Source: a virus (taxonomy: Duplodnaviria > Caudoviricetes). Taken from it: 64,000 bases of DNA. The notes beneath the pieces were generated by a model. It was given only the letters and a program-made list of their open reading frames with translations, had not been told where the DNA came from and ran no database searches. The position numbers and the translations under genes were made by a program. The stretch's first letter is position 1; each line of letters opens with the position of its first letter. Below, piece after piece: positions 3,613 through 59,723 of this stretch. The stretch is from positions 57,661-121,660 of IMG/VR virus record IMGVR_UViG_3300011008_000067. One strand, 5' to 3'.

Positions 3613-3963
3613 ATGATAGCATATAAATTAGTTAGAAAAACATGTGATAAAAAGTTATACCCTTTGTTTATAGACAGAAATCATGAATATAAATTAGGTG
3701 AACCGAGGCAAGCAGAGTTTATCCCGACAAAAGGATTTGCTCCAAGGTTAGGATTTCATTGCTGCTTCACACCTTATGCACCACATCTTAAAACACATTT
3801 AAAAAGTGGAGAAGAGCGTGTATAGGTAGAATGCGAAATTGATGATTATAAAACTTATGATCGTCCAGAATCGCAAGGTGGTAAATGGATTTTGGCACAA
3901 AAGATAATTGTAAACAAAGAGATAACTTTTGATGAAGTAAATAGGATTTTAAGTAATGTATGA
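3613..3963 (+). pseudogene. phage hypothetical protein with internal in-frame TAG
   Basis: ORF continues in frame past TAG 3823-3825 (ERV*VECEI...RPESQGGKWILAQK) to TGA 3961-3963. Confidence 0.65.
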
Positions 3964-4105
3964 TAATCGAAAGAAAACATTATTAGAAACAATACAAGAA
4001 TTGTTAGGGGAAAATAAATCTGTCTATGCAATCTTTAATCAAGATGATGTAGTTGCAAATACGAACCGATTGAAAAGGAAGGAAAGGCAAAATAGGCAAT
4101 GAGGA

Positions 4106-4345
4106 ATGAATATGTTTAAAAGGTTATTCAAAGAATTAGGTTATATAAGCAAGAATGATTTGATCGAAAAAGCAGTAACGATATATCTTAATCACAGTGG
4201 CGCAACTAATGACGAGAAAGAATTTTACTATGATTGTGGGAATTGCAATGCTCTGAATATTCTTTTTACAGAACTTGGAATCAATCTGACAGATTATGTT
4301 AAGCGTGAAAACATTAAACGTGTTTACGGAGGACATGAAATATGA
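4106..4345 (+). CDS. hypothetical protein
   Basis: 79-aa ORF in a compact operon. Confidence 0.55.
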   Translation: MNMFKRLFKELGYISKNDLIEKAVTIYLNHSGATNDEKEFYYDCGNCNALNILFTELGINLTDYVKRENIKRVYGGHEI

Positions 4346-4719
4346 CACTTGAAGAAGCGATTAAACACGCCGAGGAAGTAGCACAAGAAAAGCGATATGA
4401 GTATCAAGAATGTTTAGCTGTGCATGATATGGAAGATGCAATGGATTGTGGAAAATGCGGAGAAGAACACGAACAGATTGCGGAATGGCTGAAGGAACTG
4501 TCGAGAGCAAGGACACTCTTGAAAGCAACACATGAGTTGCTTGAATCCGCACAGCCAGAGCGGAAGAAGGGGAATATGTGGCTTATTCATAAATGGGGTG
4601 ATGATGCTAAGTGTTCCAACTGTGGAAAACATTTTGATAATGTATATGACATGGAAACCCATGATAGATTCTGTCGGTTTTGTGGCGCAAAAATGATAGG
4701 AATTAAAGGTATTAAATGA
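4342..4719 (+). CDS. phage protein with C-terminal zinc ribbon
   Basis: MTLEEAIKHAEE..EHEQIAEWLKEL N-terminus; CSNCG...FCRFCGAKM. Confidence 0.7.
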   Translation: MTLEEAIKHAEEVAQEKRYEYQECLAVHDMEDAMDCGKCGEEHEQIAEWLKELSRARTLLKATHELLESAQPERKKGNMWLIHKWGDDAKCSNCGKHFDNVYDMETHDRFCRFCGAKMIGIKGIK

Positions 4720-4753
4720 TTTAAGAACAAGCAAATAATGCGGAGGGATAGAA

Positions 4754-4957
4754 ATGACATTTTTGCAGAACGTAGCAATCATTACATTAGTTGTTATTTT
4801 TGAGGCTATAGTTGTTTTTTTAAGTATCTTTTTCACATGCGAATTAAACAAACCATATAGATATGTATCAACTGCTGTATTGGTATCTTTAAATCTTATT
4901 GCATTAGGAATAGTAGTTATTGCGTGGGCGAATGGTTTTGTTTTTCCTTTAAATTGA
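4754..4957 (+). CDS. small two-TM membrane protein
   Basis: Two hydrophobic helices; GGAGG RBS. Confidence 0.6.
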   Translation: MTFLQNVAIITLVVIFEAIVVFLSIFFTCELNKPYRYVSTAVLVSLNLIALGIVVIAWANGFVFPLN

Positions 4958-5878: not shown

Positions 5879-6672
5879 TGCAGTATCAAGGCGGTAAATA
5901 TATTATATCTTCTGATGTAGCAAGAATTATAGGGGGGGGGTACAAACCAATTTGAGATATCAAGGTGGAAAATCAAGAATAGCGAACGAATTAGCGCAAG
6001 CCATGAGGGGGGCATAATCGCAATGTTCTCGTTTCATTGTTTTGCGGTGCATGTAATGTAGAAGCAAAGGTCAAAGGATATGACGAGATAATTTGTAATG
6101 ATAATCAGCCGTATTTGATAGCATTGTTCAAGGCTTTGCAAGACGGGTATGAATTGCCTGAAATAATCACTGAAGAAGATTATCATTATGTTAAAGATCA
6201 TAAAGAAGAAAATCCGGCTTTAACTGGATTTGTCGGATTCGCTTGTAGTTTTGGCGGTAAATGGTTTGGCGGTTATGCAAGGGATAAGGCGCAAGTAAAT
6301 TATGCTTTACGTGGTAAGAAATCATTAGCACAAAAGATGAAAGGTCTTATGGATGCAAAGTTTACTTGTCTTGATTATCGAGATGTTGAATTACCAGATG
6401 GCTGCGTTATTTACGCTGATCCACCTTACGCAAATACAACAAAATATGCTAATCAAGATTTTGATACAGAATCATTTTGGGAATATATGAGAAAGATAAG
6501 TAAAAATCATATTGTTTATATATCTGAGTTAAATGCGCCGGATGATTTTGTTGCGATTTGGCAGAAAGAAATTAGAAGAATATTAGATGTAAACAAGAAT
6601 AACCAATTTAAATCAACGGAGAGGCTATTCGTTCATAGAGATAATTTAGAAATAATACAAAATAATGCTTGA
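5878..6672 (+). CDS. Dam/D12-class (alpha) DNA adenine methyltransferase with duplicated N-terminus and two G tracts, currently out of frame
   Basis: YQGGK motif X occurs twice (ATG5878, TTG5952); SLFCGAC motif I, CND, SFGGKWFGGYAR, IYADPPY. G9 at 5932-5940 and G6 at 6007-6012. Confidence 0.87.
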
Positions 6673-6696
6673 TTATTTGTGAAAAAGTGCTATACT
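6669..6696 (+). promoter_or_regulatory. sigma70/sigA-type promoter
   Basis: TTGATT-N16-TATACT with extended TG. Confidence 0.6.
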
Positions 6697-6717
6697 ATTC
6701 TTATGGAGGTAAGCACG

Positions 6718-6981
6718 ATGAATTGTCCGAAATGCCATAATGTAATGAAACATGTGCTTAGATTCACAAAAGAAAGAAATTGTGAATTATATGTTTGTGA
6801 TAAATGTTATTTTGAAACAAAACCTAAAAGAATAATATATAACAGTTTAGAAATAATACAAAATAATACAGGAAACAATGCAAAAGATTGTAACAATAAA
6901 CTAACTGTAAAGCGAAAAGAATCAAGCAAGAAAAAGAGGAAGAAAAAGAATGTACAAAATAGAAATAAAACAAGTAGGTAA
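6718..6981 (+). CDS. zinc-ribbon protein with basic tail
   Basis: GGAGGT RBS before ATG6718; CPKC...CDKC. Confidence 0.6.
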   Translation: MNCPKCHNVMKHVLRFTKERNCELYVCDKCYFETKPKRIIYNSLEIIQNNTGNNAKDCNNKLTVKRKESSKKKRKKKNVQNRNKTSR

Positions 6982-33534: not shown

Positions 33535-33758
33535 TATTAATTACCTCTTTTTTTCTTCATCCTGTACAGTATTATTCTCTGGAATATCGTTCTAACTGCG
33601 TAACAAGTGACCATGAAATTGATATGACATTCAGTTCTCAACCATGCAAGAAGCGTCCGCTCACTTGTATCAGGGTGATTATTTACCATATCGGAAGGTT
33701 ATCGGCTCCTTCTGCGTGATACTGATTTCAACCGAAGGTTACTTTGATTCACCACGCC

Positions 33759-48003: not shown

Positions 48004-51000
48004 TTATTTAAATCTTAATCGATATTTCATATCAGATGATTTACCATTAAGTTGCCCTAAAGTCATAGCTTGAACTAATTTCTCAAAATTCTTATCCTGT
48101 TGCATTTGCGAAACAAGTTCATTGTAATTTCTTACATTAGGCATAACAAAACTTATATTATCAAAGTTCTGTTCAACCTTTGTTCCGTTATGGATACCAC
48201 TAATAGATGATGTATTTAAACCTGATAAATTATTTGCTATGAAATTAGCAGGATTATTTGCAGCTTGCCACAAGTTTTCACTTGCCATAGCGTTATAAAT
48301 CCTATCGTCTGCACCAACACGAGTAAGTACAGCATGGTCAGAAGCACGTAAATACACTTCATTCGCGCCTTCTTGCGTCCATGCATAACCAGTAGTTCCA
48401 ACACGTTTTGCGCCTGTCGCATAACTTTTCCTGTTTTCGTGTTGACCATATTGTAACCAGTGTTTATAGTATTCTTTTGTGTTCTTTCCAAAAGCCTTCG
48501 CAACATCTTTATTGTTGCTCTTGTACTTGCTGAAGTTAAAATTCTTATTTGGTGAACGACCTTCATTGATTCCATATGACATAAAATGTTTGTAGTATTC
48601 AGCAAGGTTATTACCGAACGCCTTCTGTAAATCTTTATATTGATTCTTGTAATAATGTACATTAAATAATGCGTTGCCTTGTCTACCTTCTTTCATACCA
48701 TATTGTTTAAAGTGTTCAAAGTATTTCTCTTCATCATTTCCAAAAGCCTGTTGTAAATCTTTGTTGTGTGAACGGTAGAAGTTATAATCATAAACATACG
48801 CCCAATCACCGTATTTAGCAAATTGCTTTTGAGAATTTTGTTTAGCAAGTTCCGTTTGATACTTCTTTTCAGAAGTTTTCATTATATCACCTATGGAAGT
48901 TGTAGCCTTAGATGCGTTGCTTGCTTTTGCCTTTGTGCTTTTTGCTTTTTTCGCTGCATCAGCCTCTTGTTTTTTCTTATTGCTTGACTCAGCACCGATA
49001 GCAGAGGAGTCAGATTTAGCAACCGCATCGGCTTGTTGCCATAATCCATAAACAGCATCACGAACACTAAGAATAGTTTGATTGATAGTTGTTAATGCTG
49101 ATAAATGTCTATCGCCATAGACGTTCAACACAGTATCAAGACTTCCATCCCAAATATCTTTTAATTCTGAACTTAACGTCAACCCAACAGAATCAGCTTT
49201 TTCTTTAATTGTTTCAGAAATAGAAGATGCATTTTCGTTTGAAGAATCTATTACGTTTTCTATAAGCGTATCAATGTTATCCAATCTCTTGTTTAATGCT
49301 TCTTGATAATCGTCATAGAAATTATCAAGCATTTTCTTTGAATCGGACACCATGCGATCATACTCTGTTTCTTCTAACTTATCTTGTTTCTCTTTTAACT
49401 CGACACTAATCTTTTGAATCTTTGCGCGAGTTTCTTCTGTAACGTCATTAGCATACGCCGATAACTGTTTCTGGAGCGAAGATATTTCAGATGTTTGCTT
49501 TTGAATGTTCTTTTGATAATCATAAAGGTCTTTTTGATTATCTAATGCATCTTTGTACTTTTCTATGATATCATCAAGATAATCTAATTCCTGTTTAAAC
49601 CCATCCGATATAAGGGATTTAATAGAATGTTTCTCATCCTCGGCAGCTTTAATAGATTCTCTTTGCGCTTTTAGTAATTCCTTTCTCCGTTCTAACAAAT
49701 CAGAATTAGAACTATCATTTGCAATTTCACTATTAAGTCTGATAATTTCATTCGCGTATCTGTCTGCTTGGTTCATTGCCACATCATAATTCATAGCATG
49801 TAAACCAAGAATAGCTTTTCCATTATCGTTGATTGCGCCATTATCTTCAAATATTACACTATCTTCAAATAAGTCAATTAGGAACTCCGCTTCTTCACGT
49901 ATATCAGAGATTGAATTTTGTAGATAATCGAATTTATCCCATTTGATTTCTCTTACTTTATTAGCATATTCTTGAGCCTTCTTGATAGCTTCTTGTTCTG
50001 CTTCTACGGCATCATTGATTCTTTCAGTCATTTCGTACCATGCTTCTGAACCACGCCTAATTTCGCCAGTACCTACTGCTTTTGTTAATTGCTTTTGAAG
50101 GTCTTTTGCTAATTGTGAAGCATTTTTAGCATTGCTTTCCGCTATACTTTTTAGCTTTGAATAATAAACGCTACTTGTTTTTAACCCCTTTGCTTCTGCA
50201 ATGTCGAGATAATTATTATATTCTTTTGATAAATGTTCTGACAGAGACAATTTATTTTTGTATTCATCATAGATACTATTGAATACTTTTACATATTCTT
50301 TAGAAATGCTATTTGAAACTTTAATAATATCTTCGTTTAAGTCATTTATCTCATCCTCGACTTCTTGAATATCCTTTAATAATTTATAGTATTCTTCAGA
50401 ACCTTTTGCTACAATGCCTTTTGTTGTTCCGCTTGCAAGTTTATCTGTAAGTTTCGCAAGTTCACTTTTCCGTTTTGATCTTTGGTCTGAAAGATTATTT
50501 ATTAAAGCAAGATAAGATTTGATATTTGCATTTGACGCATCTCTGCTGAGTGACATTTGTACATAATCACTCGCAAAATCTTCTCTTCTTGTTATTAATG
50601 ATTTTACTTTGTCAGCGGTTTGTTCTAAATTTTGAAGCGCATTTTCCCATGTTGTAATGATGTTCTTGAATTGACTTGAATACAAATCTTTTAATTCAAG
50701 TTTAAGATCACGAATTGCTTCTTGACACTTGACTGCGTTTTCATACCACTTTTTATATTGTTCTATGTTTTTACGTGTTTCATCGTCATATTCATTAATA
50801 TCAATCGTTCCGGCTATGACTTTATCACGTAAATCTTGCGCGAGTGGTACGGAATTTGCTTGACCTATATATCTTTGATATGCTTGACCTTGTAAATCTA
50901 TTTCTTCTGTTGTTTTCTGAATTTGACGTACAAGATTATCATTACGAGTAGACCATTTTGCGAAAGTGTCTTTTGATGCTTTATCGAGTGTTTTTATTTC

Positions 51001-54000
51001 TTCCTCGACACGCTTCAATTTAATTTCTATCCAGTCAATGTAATCAGCTTTAGAATCTTTAGCTTTAGAAGAAGATGATGATGAATTTCCACCTCCACCA
51101 CCGCCTGAACTTCCACCGCCAGAGCCTCCAGAACCTCCAGAGCCACCGCCACTATTTGAACTTCCTCCAGACGATGAAGAACCACCAGAGCCAAGTCTAA
51201 AAGCTGTACCTTCAGCTAATGCTCGTCCTCTGCGATTGCCGTGTGTTATTTTCCCTTTTTCAAATATCTGTTTTGTTTGTTCCGCATTGAAGATTATATC
51301 GTCCTTCTTATACGCGAACATTTCTGCACCAGTATCGCCAATAGTAAAGAATTTGCCATCCCTTACAACTAACTCGCGTCCAAGTTCACCACCAAGCGCA
51401 ATACCGCTTGATTTAGTTCCCCAATCACCTCTTGCATACGCTGTACCTCTTGCATGTGCCGTTCCGTCAACAGCAGGAGGTGAACCAACTGTAACAATAT
51501 GATATGTAACAGTTCTACTAATATTAGGATATGACGGTGGAGAAGGCGCATTGATGTGATAGTTTACCGCCGGATTTTGGTCTGGATAAACTGGTGCTGC
51601 TGGTGCATTAATTCCATACGCTACTTGCGGAGATTGATCCTCGTATTGTGGTGCTTCTGGTGCATCTACATTTACACTGACATTTATAGCTTGACCGCTT
51701 AATCCACTAATCGCGCCACTTGCAGCGGAAGTATCGGCATTAACAGTTGCAGTAACGGATTGACCTTCTAAAGAACTTAATGCGCCATCTGCACCAGATG
51801 TATCAACATTCATATCAACATCTACTTGTTGACCTTGAAGTGATTCTGCTGCGCCTTCTGCCTGTGACGTATCAACATTCATGGAGACATCTATTTGTTG
51901 ATTTGACAGAGAACTTATTTCGCCTTCTGCTTGTGATGCATCTGCGTTAAGTGTTGCTTCAATCTCTTGCCCTGATAATGATCCTATTGAATCTTCTACG
52001 GTTGCTGTGTTTACATTAGCATCTAATTCAATAGCATCGCCTTCTGGTGCTTCAATTTCAGATGCTTGAATTTTTCCACCTTCGATAGTTGCTTCTTCGC
52101 CACTAAGACCATCTGTATCCAATTCATTTGCTTTGACTTTAGCTTCTATTTCAAGTTCAGATGAACCAGATAATTCTTGCATGTCGGATTGGAATTGAGC
52201 GAGCATATCGGGGTCTAATGCAGCATTCTTTAGTGAAGCAGTAGACATTGGTTGTATACCGCTTTCTTCTGCTAATTGCTCTTGTGCGTTTTTAGAAGAT
52301 TCTTTTTGAATATTTGAAACTTCTTCAGATGATTTTTGTGCGCCCTCTACATGACCTTCTTCAGCACCTTTTGAAACAGCGTCTTTAACTTCGTTCTGCA
52401 AAGCAGTAGTGTCTTGTTGATTGAGTGTATCAATTACCGCTTGTTGTGCTTGGATAAGTTGTTCTTGTGCTTGTTGCCTTGCGCCTTCGGAAGTCGCATT
52501 AGCTAAATTTTGTTTAAATTGATCGACTGCTCCGAGTTGGTCTTTTAAAGTTACTGGTATTTCAACGCCTTCAGAAGTCAATCCTTGCATTTCCATTGAT
52601 TTCTGAATGTAAGAACCTTGTTGTGCAATTAACTGCGCATTTGTTTCTCTCGTTCCGACAGAACCATTTCCGTTACTTCCTTCACCTTCACGCTGTCTTT
52701 GCAACTGATCCATTTGGTTCTGAATTTCAGCCAAATCATACTCGAACTTAATATGAACTACTTGTTCTTCAGTAAGCCCTGATAAATCTTCTTCAAAAGA
52801 ACTATATTCTTGGTCGAAACCTTCTATGATGTCTTTTACTCTATCTTTGCCTTTTCCGCTTTCCATATCATCGTAAACGGATTTAAGACCAGCGAGTGAG
52901 TCAGAAAACTCGTTAAGCATATCGCCTGACTTTTCAACACCATCAAATTCATAACCATATGCTTCAAGTGCGCTTAATACTGTTTCGACAGCACCAACAC
53001 TAACTCCTAATTTATCTGCTGCTTCTGCTGTGGAATTAAATTGTGATTCTATATCCCACAATCCTTTATCGTCTGATTTGTTTACGTTAAATAATCCGGC
53101 ATCTGCGAAATCGTCTACTGCATTCATCATAGACTGCGTTTCATCTTCACCAAACCATCTTTCAGCTTTTGCTAATCCTTGTTCAAACGCCTCTTGATAA
53201 ACATCGGCAGCATAGCCTCCGGCTTCTTTTGCTTCTTTAGCTTGTTTCTTTAAATTCTTAGGACTTAGGAACTGCGCGATAGATTGGAAATCGTCTGTTC
53301 CTGTTTTTCCTTCTTCGAGAAGTTCTTTTCCTTTCTTTACGGCTGATTGAATTGTAGACCAACCAGCGTCTTGGTCTGCGGATTTAGACGCTTCTTCTAC
53401 GTCCTCGACAGATACTCTAAAACTATCAAGTTTATTTGTAGCACCATCGATTTCTTCTGAGGCATCTTTAAAGTAATCTCTTAATTGTTTATAATTACTT
53501 ATGCCTAAGTCATCCATAGTCAAACCGACTTCGCCTAAAGCCTGTTTTAGATTCTTACCCTCTTTGACGGAATCTCGCAAATAATCTTTAATTGCCCCTT
53601 TTCCTTTGCCATCAAAAAAGTTTTCAAGATTATCTAATGCTTTTTCAGCAGGGGTCATGTCAATTTGTCTGAATCCTTTTGCAATATCATTTACATCTTC
53701 AATGTATTTCTTTGCGTAATCAGAATCAGCACCATATTTCAACATGGTATCAGCTTGGTCTTGAATGATGTCAAGATAACCAGCCGTTTCAGCGGTAGCT
53801 TGTGAAATCTTAGAGTTTAAATCTTCCCTTTGTTTAATTTCTTGATCTGTTAAATTACCTGATTTCTTTGCTAATTTTTCATCTAAACGACTTGATTCTT
53901 CTTTTAACGAATTGAGACTTTCAAGAGATTTTCTGGCAAGGTCGATGTTTGTTGTACCACCTTCTTCCCAAAGGTCTTTTTCATCTTTTCCAGTGTATCT

Positions 54001-54901
54001 TCCGTTTTCATCATAAACAGCTTTTTGGCTTGTAATATAATCCCAAACAGAAGCAATACTGCCGAACACGCCTTCGCCGTGTTGTCCTCTAATATGCTCC
54101 CAATAAGACTTTTCCGCTTTTGAAGCCTGTTCTGTATCTACTAAAGCGGTTTTCTTTTTCGATTCAGCAATCTTTTCTTGAATTTTAATTTGATTCTCAA
54201 GTTCTGCACTTGCCTCTGATAATCTTGAAAGTTCTGCTTCATCCACAAAGTTTAGAGTTGTATCACTCGCTTCAACTTTATTTATTATATCATCAACAGT
54301 ATCAGCACCTTCTACTTCGATATTGTATTTAAGTGCTATACCTTTTGCTTGCTCAAAGTTTTCACCTTGTTTGCCTTGAAGAGATTCAAGTTTAGACTGT
54401 GCATCTTCGTATTCTTGAACCGAAACTTCTGCTTGATCTTGCGCTCTTGTCCAACCAGAATTAAGATAGTCAAATCCTTTATAAGCACCAAAAGCAACTG
54501 CTGCTGCTATTAGCGGAGCAGCCATTGTAGCCATACTTGCTAAACCGCTACCAAACGCTCCTATCCATGTCGCACCATCTTTAAAAGCAGAAACCACGCC
54601 CATAATGCCCTTGGCAAGCGTACCACCAACAAGTAAAGTTCCGACTAAACCTATCTTGTCTGTTATTGCATCAAATACTCCAAGTATACCAGTGAGTCCA
54701 TCTAAGACTGCACCCATGTCACTACGTTGGAATAGATTTTGCCAAATGCCTGTACCTGTTTCTTTAAGAGCATTTAGTTTGTATGATATTGAATTTGTTA
54801 TGATTTCCATTTCTGCGTCTGCTGCGCCAGCAGAAGTGGACATCTTTTTTATTGCTTCTTCGGCTTGTGAAAAATTGGAAATTACGGCAGCACCAATTTG
54901 T
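48004..54901 (-). CDS. tape measure protein, exon 4
   Basis: Frame open upstream of ATG54843 (QIGAAVISNF...); long Ala/Ser/Lys helical protein upstream of Dit. Confidence 0.9.
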
Positions 54902-56502
54902 CATTACATTCAGAAAGGTCATAACTCTTTCCAGTTTAATCTAAAATTTACTATGCTGTATTGATATAAAAACCATTTTTATAATCTTCTTCGAATCTTT
55001 CCCATTGTTCTTGTGTATTATTATATCTTCCATATATACTATGAAATAAATCATGTATGTCTTTTCTTATACATACACCTAATGGGTACTTATTATGTTC
55101 ATCAATAAATGCTGATGTTATCTCAGCTAATTCTTTTTGCGTGTAATCATTAAAATCTTTAATAATATAATTAGAACTATTAAAAAAATCTGAAACTATA
55201 TGGTTGAAACTATATAGATGATGAATATGAAATTTTTTTGATCCTGTAAGCACACACTGATAATCACAATTACGCATAGAATCTGTTTTCCATGTTTGTA
55301 ATTGACCTCTAAGGTATTTGCTAATATCCGAATATTTCAAATTATCTTTGTCAACCCTCATTAATCCTAATCTATGTCTACGTTCAGATATTGATAACTT
55401 CGGTTTCCTTATTAAATTAGATAATTCATCATCAGACATATTCTCCCAATTATTCAGAAGTAAATTATCTTGCTCTTCATTCCAATATGTTTGGTTGTAA
55501 AAGAACGAAAACAGATTCAAAATACGTGCGTGACTTATAATAGCATTTCTACTTCTTGCCGGAATTAGGTTACATACTTCATCTATCGGCTTAGTTGGAT
55601 AATGTATTTTTAATAGTTTATTTTCTTCTTCACTCCAATCATCATCTGTTGAATATCCAAAATATCTAAATGCTTTTGTCTGTATCGCATCCTTTGAATA
55701 TTTATAGCCATAATGAGATTCAAGTTCATCAAGTGTGTAATTAAAATAATTATGTTTTAGAAATTCTAATTCAGATTCATTCCAGAAGAAATACTCTGCT
55801 GTTATTCCCAATTTATGCGCCTGTGAAATAATTGATTGTTTCGTTGAATTAGGAAATCTTTTCATAATAGCATCCCAATTACCAATAGGATATTCCCTCT
55901 TTATAAATTCTATATCTTCATCTGAATAATGATTTTTTGAAAATTCATATACTCCCAATCGTTTTAACTTATTTATAATACTTGATGAATTTCGTTTATA
56001 CTTTTCTGCCAACTTATATGGTTTCATTCCAGATTTATAATCTTCAATTATCATTTCTAATTCTTCTTTCGTAAATTGTCTTGCCATGCTTCTCCTATGC
56101 ATAGCTTTTAGATTAAACATCCTATACTTTCATATAGGTTTTGACTATTTCTTCACCCTCGCCGTTATGTGTTAGGGGCATACCTTTTCCATTTAAGAGG
56201 TTTTCACTCACGCCTAAATTTGCGCCGTACTTCTATTGATATGACTATTCAGGATTTCCACCTTTATTTGATTGTCATATCCCTTATGGGGAATAGTCGA
56301 TGAACATTTACCCTCGACTTAATTAACATATGGTCTATGTATGACGTTAGGGTACTTTGCTACATGAACATCCATTGTTGCATCCTTGCGTTGTCAAACC
56401 TTCATAACGTGCTTTCGCCGTTATTGTGGTGCAAGGCTTTAGGAATTACCTGTAATTAAATATGTTCTTTGCATGTATTTCTACATGTTAGGGCAACTTT
56501 CT
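54902..56502 (-). mobile_element. group I intron 3 in tape-measure gene
   Basis: P1 AGGGCA/UGCCCU, P2 CAUGUA-GAAA-UACAUG, R UUCAUCGACUA, S AAGAAAUAGUC, terminal G; splicing restores GKTRA-QIGAA. Confidence 0.9.
54951..56087 (-). CDS. intron-encoded HNH endonuclease with W..EE..L helical repeats
   Basis: CVLTG..HIHHLYSF...GVCI...HDLFH; AGGAG RBS. Confidence 0.8.
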   Translation of the reverse strand: MARQFTKEELEMIIEDYKSGMKPYKLAEKYKRNSSSIINKLKRLGVYEFSKNHYSDEDIEFIKREYPIGNWDAIMKRFPNSTKQSIISQAHKLGITAEYFFWNESELEFLKHNYFNYTLDELESHYGYKYSKDAIQTKAFRYFGYSTDDDWSEEENKLLKIHYPTKPIDEVCNLIPARSRNAIISHARILNLFSFFYNQTYWNEEQDNLLLNNWENMSDDELSNLIRKPKLSISERRHRLGLMRVDKDNLKYSDISKYLRGQLQTWKTDSMRNCDYQCVLTGSKKFHIHHLYSFNHIVSDFFNSSNYIIKDFNDYTQKELAEITSAFIDEHNKYPLGVCIRKDIHDLFHSIYGRYNNTQEQWERFEEDYKNGFYINTA

Positions 56503-56736
56503 GCCCTCGTCTTGCCGAATAACTCATCGAGAAGTTGGGCTTGGTTTTTATCCGATAAATCATCCCAAACTGCCGAAATTTCCTTCAGAACTTGATAGGT
56601 AGATTTGTATGTATCCTCATCTTCCATGATCGAAACTTTCCCACCTGTCAACTCGTAAACATCACCTTTAATATTCACAAGATTGTCATCAAGTTCCTCG
56701 GTTTCCTCATTCATGCCTCGTATACGCATCGAGATT
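56503..56736 (-). CDS. tape measure protein, exon 3
   Basis: ISMRIRG...YKSTYQVLKEIS.VWDDL...LFGKTRA, typical TMP segment. Confidence 0.88.
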
Positions 56737-58167
56737 CTTTATATTTATGTTAGTCGCAAGCTAACACGCATTGTTTGTTTTCTCCTTCAGTTCATTTATT
56801 TTAGATAATAAAAAATATTCCATATTATCTCTTTCCCAATACGGAATTTCGATAATTGGAATATTGTTTTCTTTACAATAATTAAGTTTGATTCTATCTC
56901 TAATCTGTATTATTTCAAGCTGTTGTTCAGCCCATTCTTTTCCTTTTCCCGAAAAATTAATAGGCATATAATGTTGTTCGCCTTGATATTCAAATAAAGC
57001 GTTCAACTCATTAACATAAGCATCAAACTTCAGAGGATATTTGTATCTGCAATCATCATAAGAATATTGTCTTTCTACTGTATAACCGAATGAATTAAGT
57101 AATTCTAATAATTTCCTTTCACCTTTTGATTGATTACAACTTGGACAAGATGAATCACCGCTTAATATGTGACAAACAGGTGAATCCCATTCTGTGTCAT
57201 CAATCAAACACTTACATTTAATGTAATTGTGATAACCAGTATATTTTCCTATTACTTTTATATTCGGATTTTTATTTTGTATTCTTCTGACAATATCTTC
57301 TTCATTCGCCATCTCAGCTAAGTTTGCTTTCTTCCTTCCACATTTGGGGCAACCGCCTCCGTACAATATTACAGAAGGTCTTGCTTCCCATTCGTTGTCG
57401 CAAACCTTACACCGACATTTTACTTTATCAAACCATTTTTTATATTCAGATAAAACTTCAATATCTGGATTTGCGATTCTAACACGATCACGAAAAACAT
57501 CTTTTAACTTTCCACCATTACAATATTGGCATACATGATTATATCTCTTAAAGTTATAGACTGTACTTTCTTGTAAACCAAAATCTCTATGTTTATTGCA
57601 AACAAACTGAATAAATCTTTCACGCTTGTTATTTTTTATTTTTGATTCAACACCAATATATTCAACATCGTGTTTATCGCATAATTCTCTTAATTTATTT
57701 TCATCATATATCAATAACAATATTAAACAAAACAATGCCTCATACCTTCGTATGAGAATAGACTATATTTCAACCACACTCAAAGAGTAGCAGTAATACC
57801 TTTTCCATTTAAGGGGTTTTCACCCACGCCATTTGCGATTGCGCCGTACTTCTAATGATTTGGATATTCAGGATTCCACCTTTATTCTTATTCCAAATCC
57901 CTATAAAGGGAATAGTCGTTGAGCGTTTACCCTCGCCTTATCTATTCTTTTGGTAAGAATTACGTTAGGGTACTTCGTTGCTGAACTGTGATTTTCTTCA
58001 AGTAGAAGAGTAGCACTTAGGTTTTTAGCCTTATGCTATCCTTATGTTGTTTCTGCTTTCGCACCATCATAACGTGCTTTCGCCGTTATTGTGGTATAAG
58101 GCTTTACACTTTACCAGCAATTAAATATTTACTTTATGCACATTTCTGTACATACGCACAATATCCT
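56737..58167 (-). mobile_element. group I intron 2 in tape-measure gene
   Basis: P1 CGCACA/UGUGCG, P AAUUGCUGG, Q UUCAGCAAC, R CUCAACGACUA, S AAAUAUAGUC, terminal G; splicing restores GNGLRT-ISMR. Confidence 0.9.
56761..57735 (-). CDS. intron-encoded endonuclease (zinc ribbons + Vsr-like PD-(D/E)xK)
   Basis: CPKC/CPSC repeats, SKGE, LKFDAY..EYQGEQHY; start uncertain. Confidence 0.8.
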   Translation of the reverse strand: MFCLILLLIYDENKLRELCDKHDVEYIGVESKIKNNKRERFIQFVCNKHRDFGLQESTVYNFKRYNHVCQYCNGGKLKDVFRDRVRIANPDIEVLSEYKKWFDKVKCRCKVCDNEWEARPSVILYGGGCPKCGRKKANLAEMANEEDIVRRIQNKNPNIKVIGKYTGYHNYIKCKCLIDDTEWDSPVCHILSGDSSCPSCNQSKGERKLLELLNSFGYTVERQYSYDDCRYKYPLKFDAYVNELNALFEYQGEQHYMPINFSGKGKEWAEQQLEIIQIRDRIKLNYCKENNIPIIEIPYWERDNMEYFLLSKINELKEKTNNAC

Positions 58168-58517
58168 GTGCGGAGTCCATTACCTACTTTGGACGCATCT
58201 TGCACAATTTCAGTACCAGCAGTAATTAAAGCAATAGTTTCATCAAGTGAGTTATTCGCTACTGCCATAGCACTTGATGAATTTTTAAGAGCAGTCATAA
58301 CGTCTGCATTTGACAATGCAAAACTGTTACCGACTTTATTAACTTTAGACATTACACCGTCAAGAACATCATCAGCTTCAATTCCGAATGCCTTCATCGT
58401 ACTGACAAGACTTGAAGTGCTTTCTTCAACACTCATCCCCGGACTTATCGCTGCAAACTGCGATGATAATTTGCTCATCGTTTTTGCATCTGACAGGTTA
58501 TATCCAAGACGAGACCA
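58168..58517 (-). CDS. tape measure protein, exon 2
   Basis: WSRLGY...STMKAFGI...NKVGNSFA...GTEIVQDASKVGNGLR, TP901-type TMP core. Confidence 0.9.
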
Positions 58518-59723
58518 CCTTTTGTTACTCTCTTCAAAATAGAAGAGGAGTAGGTCATTTCTGCCTACTTCTGCAATTTCATTTTTAGATTATATTTGCA
58601 GAGCAGAGTACATCTTCACCATGCGCAAAATGCGTTTAGGTGTTCAGCGTGTAAACATACATTACTGCATGTAAAACTTACTCGTTACGGGTTCAAAACA
58701 TTTAATATCAATTTTTCTATATTTTCTATTGTTTCTCCATATTGTATTTCTAATAATACTATATCATTATCTTTGCAGTACCTTCTCTTAATAGAATCGT
58801 TTCTTTTTCTATCCTCGAATCCTTGCACACCGCCAAAATAATCGACTACTTGATAATGCTGTTTTCCTTGATATTCAATACATACATTGTTTTCAGGCAA
58901 ATAAAAATCGAACGGCAATCGCCGTTCGTGTTTGCAATCATCAAATCTATATTGATTTATAAAAGAAATGTTATGGTTTTGCAGTATTTCTTGAATGATA
59001 TATTCTCCTTTACTTCTTCCCATACATCCACACGATGTAGTATGTCCAGTAGTCAAAGAAGAACCATCCACAATGCAAATGTTTCCACAATCACATTCAC
59101 ATGAGTATGTTCTTCTATCGTATTGGCTTCGATCTAATTCTTTTATAGCTGTTAATAATCCAAATTTTTTACCTATTATATTGTTCTTTAATGAATTTAT
59201 GTAATCTAATTTATTGCATCCGCATGATTGTTTATGCCCTCGTTTTAAATTTGAAGACTCACAATAGGTTATATTACCACAATCACACTTGCATTCCCAT
59301 ATAACTGAACCGTTTGCACTTCTATTACCTGAATCTTTAATAACTGTTAGTTTCCCAAACCGTTTCCCAATTATATCTGTCTGTGCATGATTACGATTAT
59401 ATCTTGATTCTTTTTCATAACATCCACATGATTTAGATTTTCCTTTTATTACGTTGTAGAAATTCATTTCTTTCTTATTTCCACATTGACATTTACAAAA
59501 TGCTTTTCTTTGTTTTCCAATTTTATAAATATCAAGAATTGTTAATAGGTTGTATTCGTTTCCAATATATTCATCATAATTTTTCTTTTTTATCAAATTA
59601 CCACATCCAATGATATGATATTAAATGTTTTGTCTTGCCCTCGGAATTGTCCTTCTCAGGATTTTTCCCGATAAAAGCTGAATGTAAACTTATATGTTTC
59701 CATATAAGAGGACTTATAGGTTA
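58518..59723 (-). mobile_element. group I intron 1 in tape-measure gene
   Basis: P1 GGAU/GUCC with U.G, P2 CUUAUAUG-GAAA-CAUAUAAG, P3 UUCAGC/GCUGAA, P7 GAGUA/UACUC, terminal G; splicing restores GAAD-WSRLG. Confidence 0.9.
58685..59596 (-). CDS. intron-encoded endonuclease (FG.LTV...CxCDCGN repeats + Vsr-like PD-(D/E)xK)
   Basis: Three CxCxCG/SCGC repeats, SKGE, LPFDFYL..IEYQGKQHY. Confidence 0.82.
   Translation of the reverse strand: MIKKKNYDEYIGNEYNLLTILDIYKIGKQRKAFCKCQCGNKKEMNFYNVIKGKSKSCGCYEKESRYNRNHAQTDIIGKRFGKLTVIKDSGNRSANGSVIWECKCDCGNITYCESSNLKRGHKQSCGCNKLDYINSLKNNIIGKKFGLLTAIKELDRSQYDRRTYSCECDCGNICIVDGSSLTTGHTTSCGCMGRSKGEYIIQEILQNHNISFINQYRFDDCKHERRLPFDFYLPENNVCIEYQGKQHYQVVDYFGGVQGFEDRKRNDSIKRRYCKDNDIVLLEIQYGETIENIEKLILNVLNP

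Follow-up and report, generated by a model that had tools for sequence, protein, structure and literature searches.

TMP-IVS1 and TMP-IVS2 are group I introns of subgroup IA2 that interrupt tape-measure genes in prophages of the Bacillus cereus group (Tourasse and Kolsto 2008, PMC2504315). The same study states that a U in a U-G pair precedes virtually all group I introns, with no exception reported there. Elsewhere, the G:U pair is counted among the few strict requirements of the group I 5' site (PMC6155759). Natural C.G 5' splice sites have been reported for two cox1 introns of fungal mitochondria (Hur and Waring 1995, Nucleic Acids Res 23:4466).

In the gut phage IMGVR_UViG_3300011008_000067, the tape-measure gene, which lies on the minus strand, is interrupted by all three of the introns considered here (introns 1-3). 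They are contained in the window, the whole stretch of 64,000 nt that was analysed. Group I splicing is held to obey a single strict sequence rule, the U.G wobble at the 5' splice site, which limits both the sites at which these introns can insert and the targets of engineered trans-splicing ribozymes. An earlier note on this DNA proposed that introns 2 and 3 use a C-G pair instead of the wobble and that they belong to a distinct subfamily with altered splice-site recognition. Here we report the junctions and core of these introns and compare their splice-site pair with that of their relatives.

Results

Exon junctions in the tape-measure gene

Junctions were placed by comparing the translations of 58517-58170, 56738-56505 and 54900 onward with 79 uninterrupted tape-measure homologues (Table 1). 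At both joins exactly one residue separates the exon blocks in 79/79 homologues (R-T-I and R-A-Q), which puts the junctions of introns 2 and 3 where the earlier note had them. The joining residue is T, or S/N/A, between exons 2 and 3, and A, or G/S/Y, between exons 3 and 4. Introns 2 and 3 sit between codon positions 2 and 3 of the conserved Thr codon and the conserved Ala codon, respectively, with C58168 and C56503 at position 2. The third base of the codon is free to vary in intron-less alleles and is A in intron-bearing alleles. Two other ends of intron 2, at G56730 (which would give an A-U pair) and at G56725, were ruled out because the homologues need I-S-M after the Thr.

Each intron has two equivalent nucleotide readings, an ambiguity of one base that had been pointed out before. 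In one, the cut follows C58168 or C56503 and the intron ends in G56737 or G54902; in the other, both cuts fall one base later, which gives an A-U splice-site pair and a terminal A. With the terminal G, the C-G splice-site pairs previously proposed are real. In P1 of intron 2, C58168-G58159 is followed by A58167-U58160 and G58166.U58161, and in P1 of intron 3, C56503-G56494 is followed by A56502-U56495 and G56501.U56496. Both P1 helices have five exon-guide pairs and one or two intron pairs. The first base of the P2 loop comes 13 nt after G58159, and the same distance separates G56494 from its own P2 loop downstream. Neither intron has the U.G wobble at its 5' splice site, and no U is found within five bases upstream of either cut. 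The cut of intron 1 follows U59724, paired to G59713 in the normal U.G wobble, as had been stated.

Table 1. Exons, introns, helices and open reading frames of the interrupted tape-measure gene, in window coordinates.
Feature	Position	Strand	Basis or remark
Intron 1	58518..59723	(-)	Smaller, different group I intron; terminal G58518; join AAD|WSR
Intron 1 ORF	59596-58685	(-)	PHROG search
Exon 2, tape-measure gene	58168..58517	(-)	Pfam PF10145 match; final base C58168; alignment to 79 uninterrupted homologues
Intron 2, group I, IA type, 1431 nt	56737..58167	(-)	A58167 to G56737; homologue-guided junction and covarying core helices
P1 of intron 2	58155..58172	(-)	Exon strand 58172-58168, guide strand 58159-58155; read from sequence
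P2 of intron 2, 8 bp	58135..58154	(-)	GAAA loop 58146-58143; sequence and covariation
Catalytic core of intron 2, P3 to P9	57739..58128	(-)	Pair counts in 45 relatives
P3 of intron 2	58128-58123 with 57801-57796	(-)	
P4 of intron 2	58119-58116 with 57982-57979	(-)	
P7 of intron 2	57917-57912 with 57766-57761	(-)	
P9 of intron 2	57756-57739	(-)	
Intron 2 ORF, 324 aa, putative homing endonuclease	56761..57735	(-)	After P9; PHROG 559, 9084; Pfam CapR and DUF4379 zinc-finger domains
Exon 3	56503..56736	(-)	First base A56736, final base C56503; homologue alignment
Intron 3, paralogue of intron 2, 1601 nt	54902..56502	(-)	A56502 to G54902; homologue-guided junction
P1 of intron 3	56490..56507	(-)	Exon 56507-56503 with guide 56490-56494
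P2 of intron 3, 6 bp	56472..56487	(-)	GAAA loop 56481-56478
P7 of intron 3	56143..56298	(-)	56298-56293 with 56148-56143; encloses P7.1, P7.2, P3 3' strand and P8
Intron 3 ORF, 389 aa, putative HNH-type endonuclease with Myb-like repeats	54951..56120	(-)	PHROG 1891, 323; weak Pfam Myb match
Exon 4	48004..54901	(-)	First base A54901; homologue alignment

Core structure and open reading frames of introns 2 and 3

The fold on 45 relatives contained 102 pairs in 22 helices, and 87.6% of the cells were paired compared to 35-42% when the partners were slid. Changes on both sides were observed at 66 pairs, and the observed values were reached by 0 of 500 shuffles. Covariation supports P2-P9: P3, P4, P5, P5a and P9 all covary, and P2 (helix 1) was 96.9% paired with double changes at 6 pairs. 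The P7 guanosine-site pair was G-C in 45/45 relatives (alignment columns 306/522); in the window it is G57917-C57761 in intron 2 and G56298-C56143 in intron 3. A terminal G is present in both introns, with the one-base ambiguity resolved indirectly (see Discussion). Pairwise alignment also recovered the large peripheral blocks that had been noticed in both introns. In subgroup IA (IA2-like), the segment that runs from the 5' strand of P7 to the 3' strand of P3 carries the extra hairpins P7.1 and P7.2. Both hairpins are present (57910-57899 and 57898-57858); their apical part covaries (helix 17), and two further hairpins follow (helices 18 and 19).

A scan of the window with Rfam RF00028 gave no match at the gathering score (50 bits) and none up to E 10. 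RF00028 positions 1-253 aligned end to end with an ORF-less relative (L033:1217-1617) at 36.3 bits (E 1e-7), below the threshold. A similar score, 33.7 bits, was obtained for a staphylococcal phage lysin-gene intron known from the literature. Since the ORF-less relative does match, the lack of a match in the window is attributed to the ORF insertions and the search space. In the RF00028 alignment, two consensus A's of J5/4 are replaced by U-U in the family of introns 2 and 3. Collectively, the covarying fold, the invariant P7 pair and the RF00028 alignment identify introns 2 and 3 as genuine members of group I, type IA.

Both introns contain an endonuclease-type ORF downstream of P9 (Table 1), and intron-less alleles of both sites were found in related phages. 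These two features mark introns 2 and 3 as probable homing-endonuclease-bearing mobile introns. In two RNA and two DNA runs, no joint across intron 2 or 3 was found; the sole match was a 311-nt metatranscriptome contig inside the intron 3 core (56174-56484), which could be DNA carry-over.

The splice-site pair varies among relatives

Relatives of introns 2 and 3 occur mostly in tape-measure genes, at at least ten sites, and their P1 was located by anchoring on P2. Pairs were counted in 58 distinct relatives (distinct P1 helices) and positional pairing was measured in 59 relatives with different P1 sequences; low-scoring junction calls (L041, L058, L125, L127, L150, L164 and others) were left uncounted. 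A tabulation of the P1 pair, as the earlier note had proposed, gave C-G in 36, U-A in 13 and U.G in 9 of the 58, and one further type (L017) has a G-C pair. The wobble is missing from about 85% of the family. It is tolerated rather than excluded, since U.G members exist. ORF-less members (L001, L021, L033 and L053) share the same splice-site habit. This comparison indicates that a variable splice-site pair (C-G, U-A, G-C or U.G) is a property of the whole intron family. The proposed subfamily is distinct, and it is a large phage subfamily, but C-G is not its replacement for U.G, as the pair varies. It would be more accurate to say of the family that the wobble is not required, and we infer from sequence comparison that its splice-site recognition may be altered.

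Two simpler patterns did not hold. An early rule that a U before the cut always pairs with A (5/5) failed in the wider sample, with 13 U-A against 9 U.G. L017 was ruled out as a canonical U.G member. A conserved phosphatase motif in its protein (G|H-N-H) places the cut behind a G-C pair at the 13-nt distance from the loop, one base earlier than the available U.G; Pfam gave only a weak purple-acid-phosphatase match for this gene. The 3' exon of L017 starts with C, with a guide G opposite.

In 55/58 relatives, the P2 tetraloop follows at 13 nt from the guide base that faces the last exon base; the P1 loop ranges from 5 to 17 nt. The position 13 nt before the P2 loop was paired in 98% of the 59 relatives, compared to about 37% expected at random. 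With the site set by the 13-nt spacing alone, positions -5 to +1 were paired in 85-98% of the same relatives. The most conserved pair of P1 is the A-U pair of the first intron base (52/59). With protein homology as a guide, about 30 junctions ending in a terminal G could be placed, and every placed relative but one has a terminal-G, frame-restoring junction; for L022, no terminal-G junction compatible with its homologue was found. The first P10 pair is absent from L091. A scan of genome contigs with an 18-base pattern gave 32 matches, only about 9 of which are real introns, the others arising by chance. Hominimerdicola aceti and Clostridium cuniculi were among the genomes matched.

Discussion

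On this comparative evidence, we consider it about 75% probable that introns 2 and 3 are mobile IA group I introns that are cut after the C of a C-G pair, a pair that varies throughout the family around a constant geometry. Their removal would most likely follow the ordinary two-step guanosine mechanism, with a canonical P7 guanosine pocket and a terminal G. The geometry consists of about five exon-guide pairs and then the nearly invariant A-U pair from the first intron base. The guide strand continues straight into an 8-bp P2 with a GNRA loop, and this direct junction places the partner of the cut site 13 nt from the loop. P10 would form once the first step is complete, when the guide base released from the first intron base pairs with the first base of the 3' exon.

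Since the pair varies across a large phage family, the cut site may be set by position in the helix. We infer that the introns are spliced and that P1, stacked on an anchored P2, probably acts as a ruler that places the scissile phosphate in the active site, which would make the wobble unnecessary. A stronger form of this idea is tentative, and we give it somewhat less than an even chance: a P1-P2 stack of constant 13-nt length, held in place by the GNRA loop of P2, would choose the 5' cut, and neither U.G nor its receptor would play a part, so that any base could precede the cut. The 13-nt spacing could be inherited, not selected.

It is unlikely, in our view, that the C-G introns are instead weak self-splicers in need of a helper, either an intron-encoded protein or a host factor, with the pair a tolerated defect forced by the codon. 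C-G lowers the activity of the Tetrahymena ribozyme, and the C of introns 2 and 3 is at a codon position of Thr or Ala where U would change the residue. Hur and Waring (1995) raised the same idea for the two fungal introns. The family does not, however, restore the wobble when it could: among relatives whose upstream exon ends in a U at an unconstrained third codon position, 13 have A as the guide base and only 9 have G. Moreover, the ORF-less members have the same habit, and the Thr codon can accept a U at position 2, since Ile or Val takes the place of Thr in some intron-less alleles.

A shift of both cuts one base 3' is less probable still. The splice pairs would then be A58167-U58160 and A56502-U56495, and the introns would end in A56736 and A54901, after the G. 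The ligated exons are the same in both registers, so RNA-seq of the mRNA could not tell them apart. The conservation of the A-U pair above all others in P1 recalls that of U.G in ordinary introns, and one intron of a Coxiella 23S rRNA gene is reported to end naturally in A. Several observations nevertheless make the A-U/terminal-A register disfavoured. The pocket pair in P7 is always G-C, the pair found in guanosine-specific introns, and with a single exception the placed junctions all have G before the A. Compensatory changes in the first P10 pair were found in two relatives, L014 and L017. L014 (intron 6445-6969) occupies the same site as intron 3, and it has G as the first base of its 3' exon and C as the neighbouring guide base, in place of the A and U of the others; in the shifted register a U would face a C. 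In L017, the shift would break the G-H-N-H motif. Finally, U.G members such as L137, and the staphylococcal relative L004, have the same register and spacing, with the wobble at the 13-nt position and not at 12. The weakest alternative is that a canonical cut after U is hidden in another P1, or that there is no splicing and the gene is either inactive or yields its protein as separate pieces; this is very improbable, although RF00028 scores stay below the gathering score. A cut after the nearest upstream U (58174) would remove two residues present in 79/79 homologues, and no alternative guide sequence was seen for it. Frame-restoring terminal-G junctions recur in about 30 relatives at ten or more sites, and strong purifying selection, with compensatory changes, acts on the core. 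Tailed phages, moreover, cannot do without a tape-measure protein.

A large natural family with a standard core, in which C-G, U-A and G-C appear to be allowed, offers a direct test of the wobble against helix position. Freedom from the wobble would explain how these introns colonise codon positions that are unable to hold U, and it may be part of the reason why they have spread to at least ten sites in a single essential phage gene. If the cut is indeed set by geometry, the family would show how wobble recognition can be replaced and could let trans-splicing ribozymes act on target sites that lack a U. It also supplies small ORF-less candidate ribozymes of 410-470 nt for biochemistry.

By their description, TMP-IVS1 and TMP-IVS2 resemble introns 2 and 3 in their host gene, their IA type and their occurrence at several sites per gene, and they too are paralogues with a conserved core and a P1 re-fitted to each site. 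The Twort-like staphylococcal lysin-gene intron (L004, OP913463) and the related matches in Bacillus phages AR9 and PBS1 share the 3' core block with introns 2 and 3 (about 73% identity). They also share the layout of P1 and P2, in which the first intron base is an A paired to U and a GNRA-capped P2 follows at the 13-nt spacing. In contrast to introns 2 and 3, L004 has the canonical U.G at the cut, carries its endonuclease ORF inside the core rather than after P9 and lacks the P5 extension block. The Tetrahymena, Azoarcus and Twort ribozymes share with introns 2 and 3 the P3-P9 core, the P3/P7 pseudoknot, the P7 G-C pocket, the terminal G, P10 and the GNRA loops on P2 and P9. These canonical ribozymes have G:U at the cut, whereas the great majority of the present family does not. 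The fungal cox1 introns are alike in having a natural C-G for U.G in a group I intron of a protein-coding gene. They are two isolated organellar introns, whereas here the departure from U.G appears to extend through a whole phage lineage and to include U-A and G-C.

Related group I introns in a phage tape-measure gene

The tail tape-measure gene is broken by three inserts, introns 1 to 3, each with an endonuclease-type ORF; introns 2 and 3 are related. The window is the final 64 kb of an IMG/VR virus record of 121,660 bases (~78% complete), and the DNA runs containing it came from goat, sheep and cattle gut metagenomes. It also holds an RT-2 RNA, an RNA linked with diversity-generating retroelements.

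Features of the window discussed in the text
Feature	Position	Strand	Basis or remark
Tail tape-measure gene		minus	Pfam PF10145
Intron 1	59723-58518	minus	Cut-site pair normal U.G
ORF of intron 1	59596-58685	minus	
Intron 2, C-G/terminal-G register	58167-56737	minus	Homologue-guided junction
ORF of intron 2	57735-56761	minus	
Intron 3, C-G/terminal-G register	56502-54902	minus	Homologue-guided junction
RT-2 RNA	33537-33756	minus	Rfam match, full length, 121.6 bits

An Rfam search of the window gave no match to the introns. Relatives were gathered with a conserved 18-base block, which retrieved 64 viral loci, and with a second conserved block, which retrieved more than 115 viral loci in a further search; about nine genome matches were real, from gut bacteria of Clostridia type plus a few metagenome-assembled genomes. 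An ORF-less relative aligned with the whole of the model RF00028 (36.3 bits, E 1e-7), a score on par with that of a staphylococcal phage lysin-gene intron, an intron already known from the literature. The fold was drawn on intron 2 by coordinates and then counted over 45 distinct relatives. Paired cells amounted to 87.6%, compared to 35-42% with the partners slid, both sides had changed at 66 pairs, and none of 500 shuffles matched the observed pairing values. Covariation was seen in P2, P3, P4, the 3-bp P5, P5a, P5c, P6a and P9. P7 was invariant, with its G-C pocket pair in 45/45 relatives. The introns resemble subgroup IA in having two hairpins between P7 and the P3 3' strand. The endonuclease ORF lies downstream of P9. 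At the 3' end, a short tail containing a small hairpin finishes with an A/U-rich stretch and the terminal G. In alignment A2 of the family, the bases flanking P5 (58110, just before its 5' side, and 57987, just after its 3' strand) have matching letters across the two strands and change in concert (A/A or U/U), a like-with-like covariation unexplained by standard pairing.

Several further arrangements were observed. The tape-measure gene of a related phage (L001:2700-6200) has four introns in ~3.5 kb: the first lies five codons downstream of the intron 1 site, family members occupy 3827-4297 and 4520-4939, and a fourth, different intron follows a ~22-nt micro-exon. The family member within a large phosphatase-like gene with the motif G-H-N-H (L017:4061-5569, minus strand, also L057, L059, L060 and L080) carries its endonuclease ORF within the P6 region instead of after P9. 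Introns 1 and 2 have unrelated ribozymes, yet their ORFs fall into common PHROG families (559, 9084, 7140), which suggests that endonuclease genes may have been exchanged between introns. One RNA-library contig from a bovine gut metatranscriptome (run X20) was identical to 56174-56484. This 311-nt contig lies wholly within the structured intron 3 core, with nothing from the flanking exons, and may stem from an excised intron that is stable or from DNA carry-over.

Exon junctions and splice-site register

A search with exon 2 retrieved 675 relatives; among the 120 matches listed, 79 were uninterrupted across both insertion points. In 79/79, exactly one residue lies between the exon 2 end block and the exon 3 start block, and likewise between the exon 3 and exon 4 blocks, bearing out the joins R-T-I and R-A-Q of the earlier note. 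The Thr and Ala codons at these joins end in A, which can be assigned either to the first intron base or to the base after the terminal G, so two registers remain, indistinguishable from spliced mRNA: a C-G cut-site pair (last exon base and guide base) with terminal G, or, one base later, an A-U pair with terminal A. The latter had also been foreseen in the earlier note, as had the normal U.G pair of intron 1. A cut after U58174 would remove two residues kept by all homologues, and sequence inspection with homologue alignment placed no U within reach of the 5' cut in intron 2 or 3.

Four lines of sequence evidence favour the cut before A, giving C-G and a terminal G. The pocket pair, G-C, is of the guanosine type. 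A G precedes the ambiguous A in all placed junctions except one. Two relatives resolve the one-base ambiguity: in L014, at the intron 3 site, a 3' exon beginning with G is matched by C as the neighbouring guide base (A and U in the others), a compensatory change of the first P10 pair; in L017, the cut is placed after a G paired with C by the conserved motif G|H-N-H, and the 3' exon begins with C facing guide G, with a U.G pair on offer one position further. Finally, the wobble of nine U.G members and of the canonical staphylococcal relative falls at the position of the C-G pairs. The cut-site C occupies the second codon position of Thr (intron 2) or Ala (intron 3). In related phages, alleles lacking the intron have any base at codon position 3, and in some cases Ile or Val; alleles with the intron have A there, consistent with its pairing to the guide sequence.

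The cut-site pair varies across the family

P1 lies immediately 5' of a GNRA-capped P2 in all family members. Tabulated over 58 distinct P1 helices, as the earlier note had proposed, the cut-site pair was C-G in 36, U-A in 13 and U.G in 9, and an additional type in the phosphatase-like gene had G-C. The first intron base was A paired with U in 52/59. About 30 junctions, at ≥10 different sites mostly within tape-measure genes, were set independently by protein homology and had the terminal G at the expected position. The C-G observation is confirmed at introns 2 and 3, and its interpretation is partly supported: across the family the pair is variable rather than switched to C-G. The exon side of P1 has a strong consensus (position -3 is G in 51/59, -2 a purine in 57/59, -1 a pyrimidine; the 3' exon starts with A), which may reflect an endonuclease target or a ribozyme preference.

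The distance from the partner of the last exon base to the first P2 loop base was 13 nt in 55/58 members and 14 nt in the three others, while the P1 loop spanned 5-17 nt in the same 58. It is 13 in intron 2 (58159 to 58146) and intron 3 (56494 to 56481), and, counted by hand, in L017 and the staphylococcal intron. Defining the site solely by this spacing gave pairing at positions -5 to +1 in 85-98% of members. This suggests, short of proof, that the cut site may be set by a fixed-length P1-P2 stack anchored via the P2 tetraloop.

Comparison with known group I introns

In solved ribozymes, the wobble receptor is formed by adenines of J4/5 and J5/4. Aligned to RF00028, the intron family has U-U in place of the two adenines of the J5/4 consensus, and G-U-U-C at J5/4 and G-G-U-A in J4/5 are invariant; a changed wobble receptor would fit this alteration. 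Our literature search turned up no phage lineage described as having a variable or non-wobble cut-site pair. U precedes virtually all group I introns (PMC2504315), and little other than a G:U pair is strictly required at the 5' site (PMC6155759). A precedent is provided by two fungal mitochondrial introns with C.G at the 5' splice site (Hur and Waring 1995).
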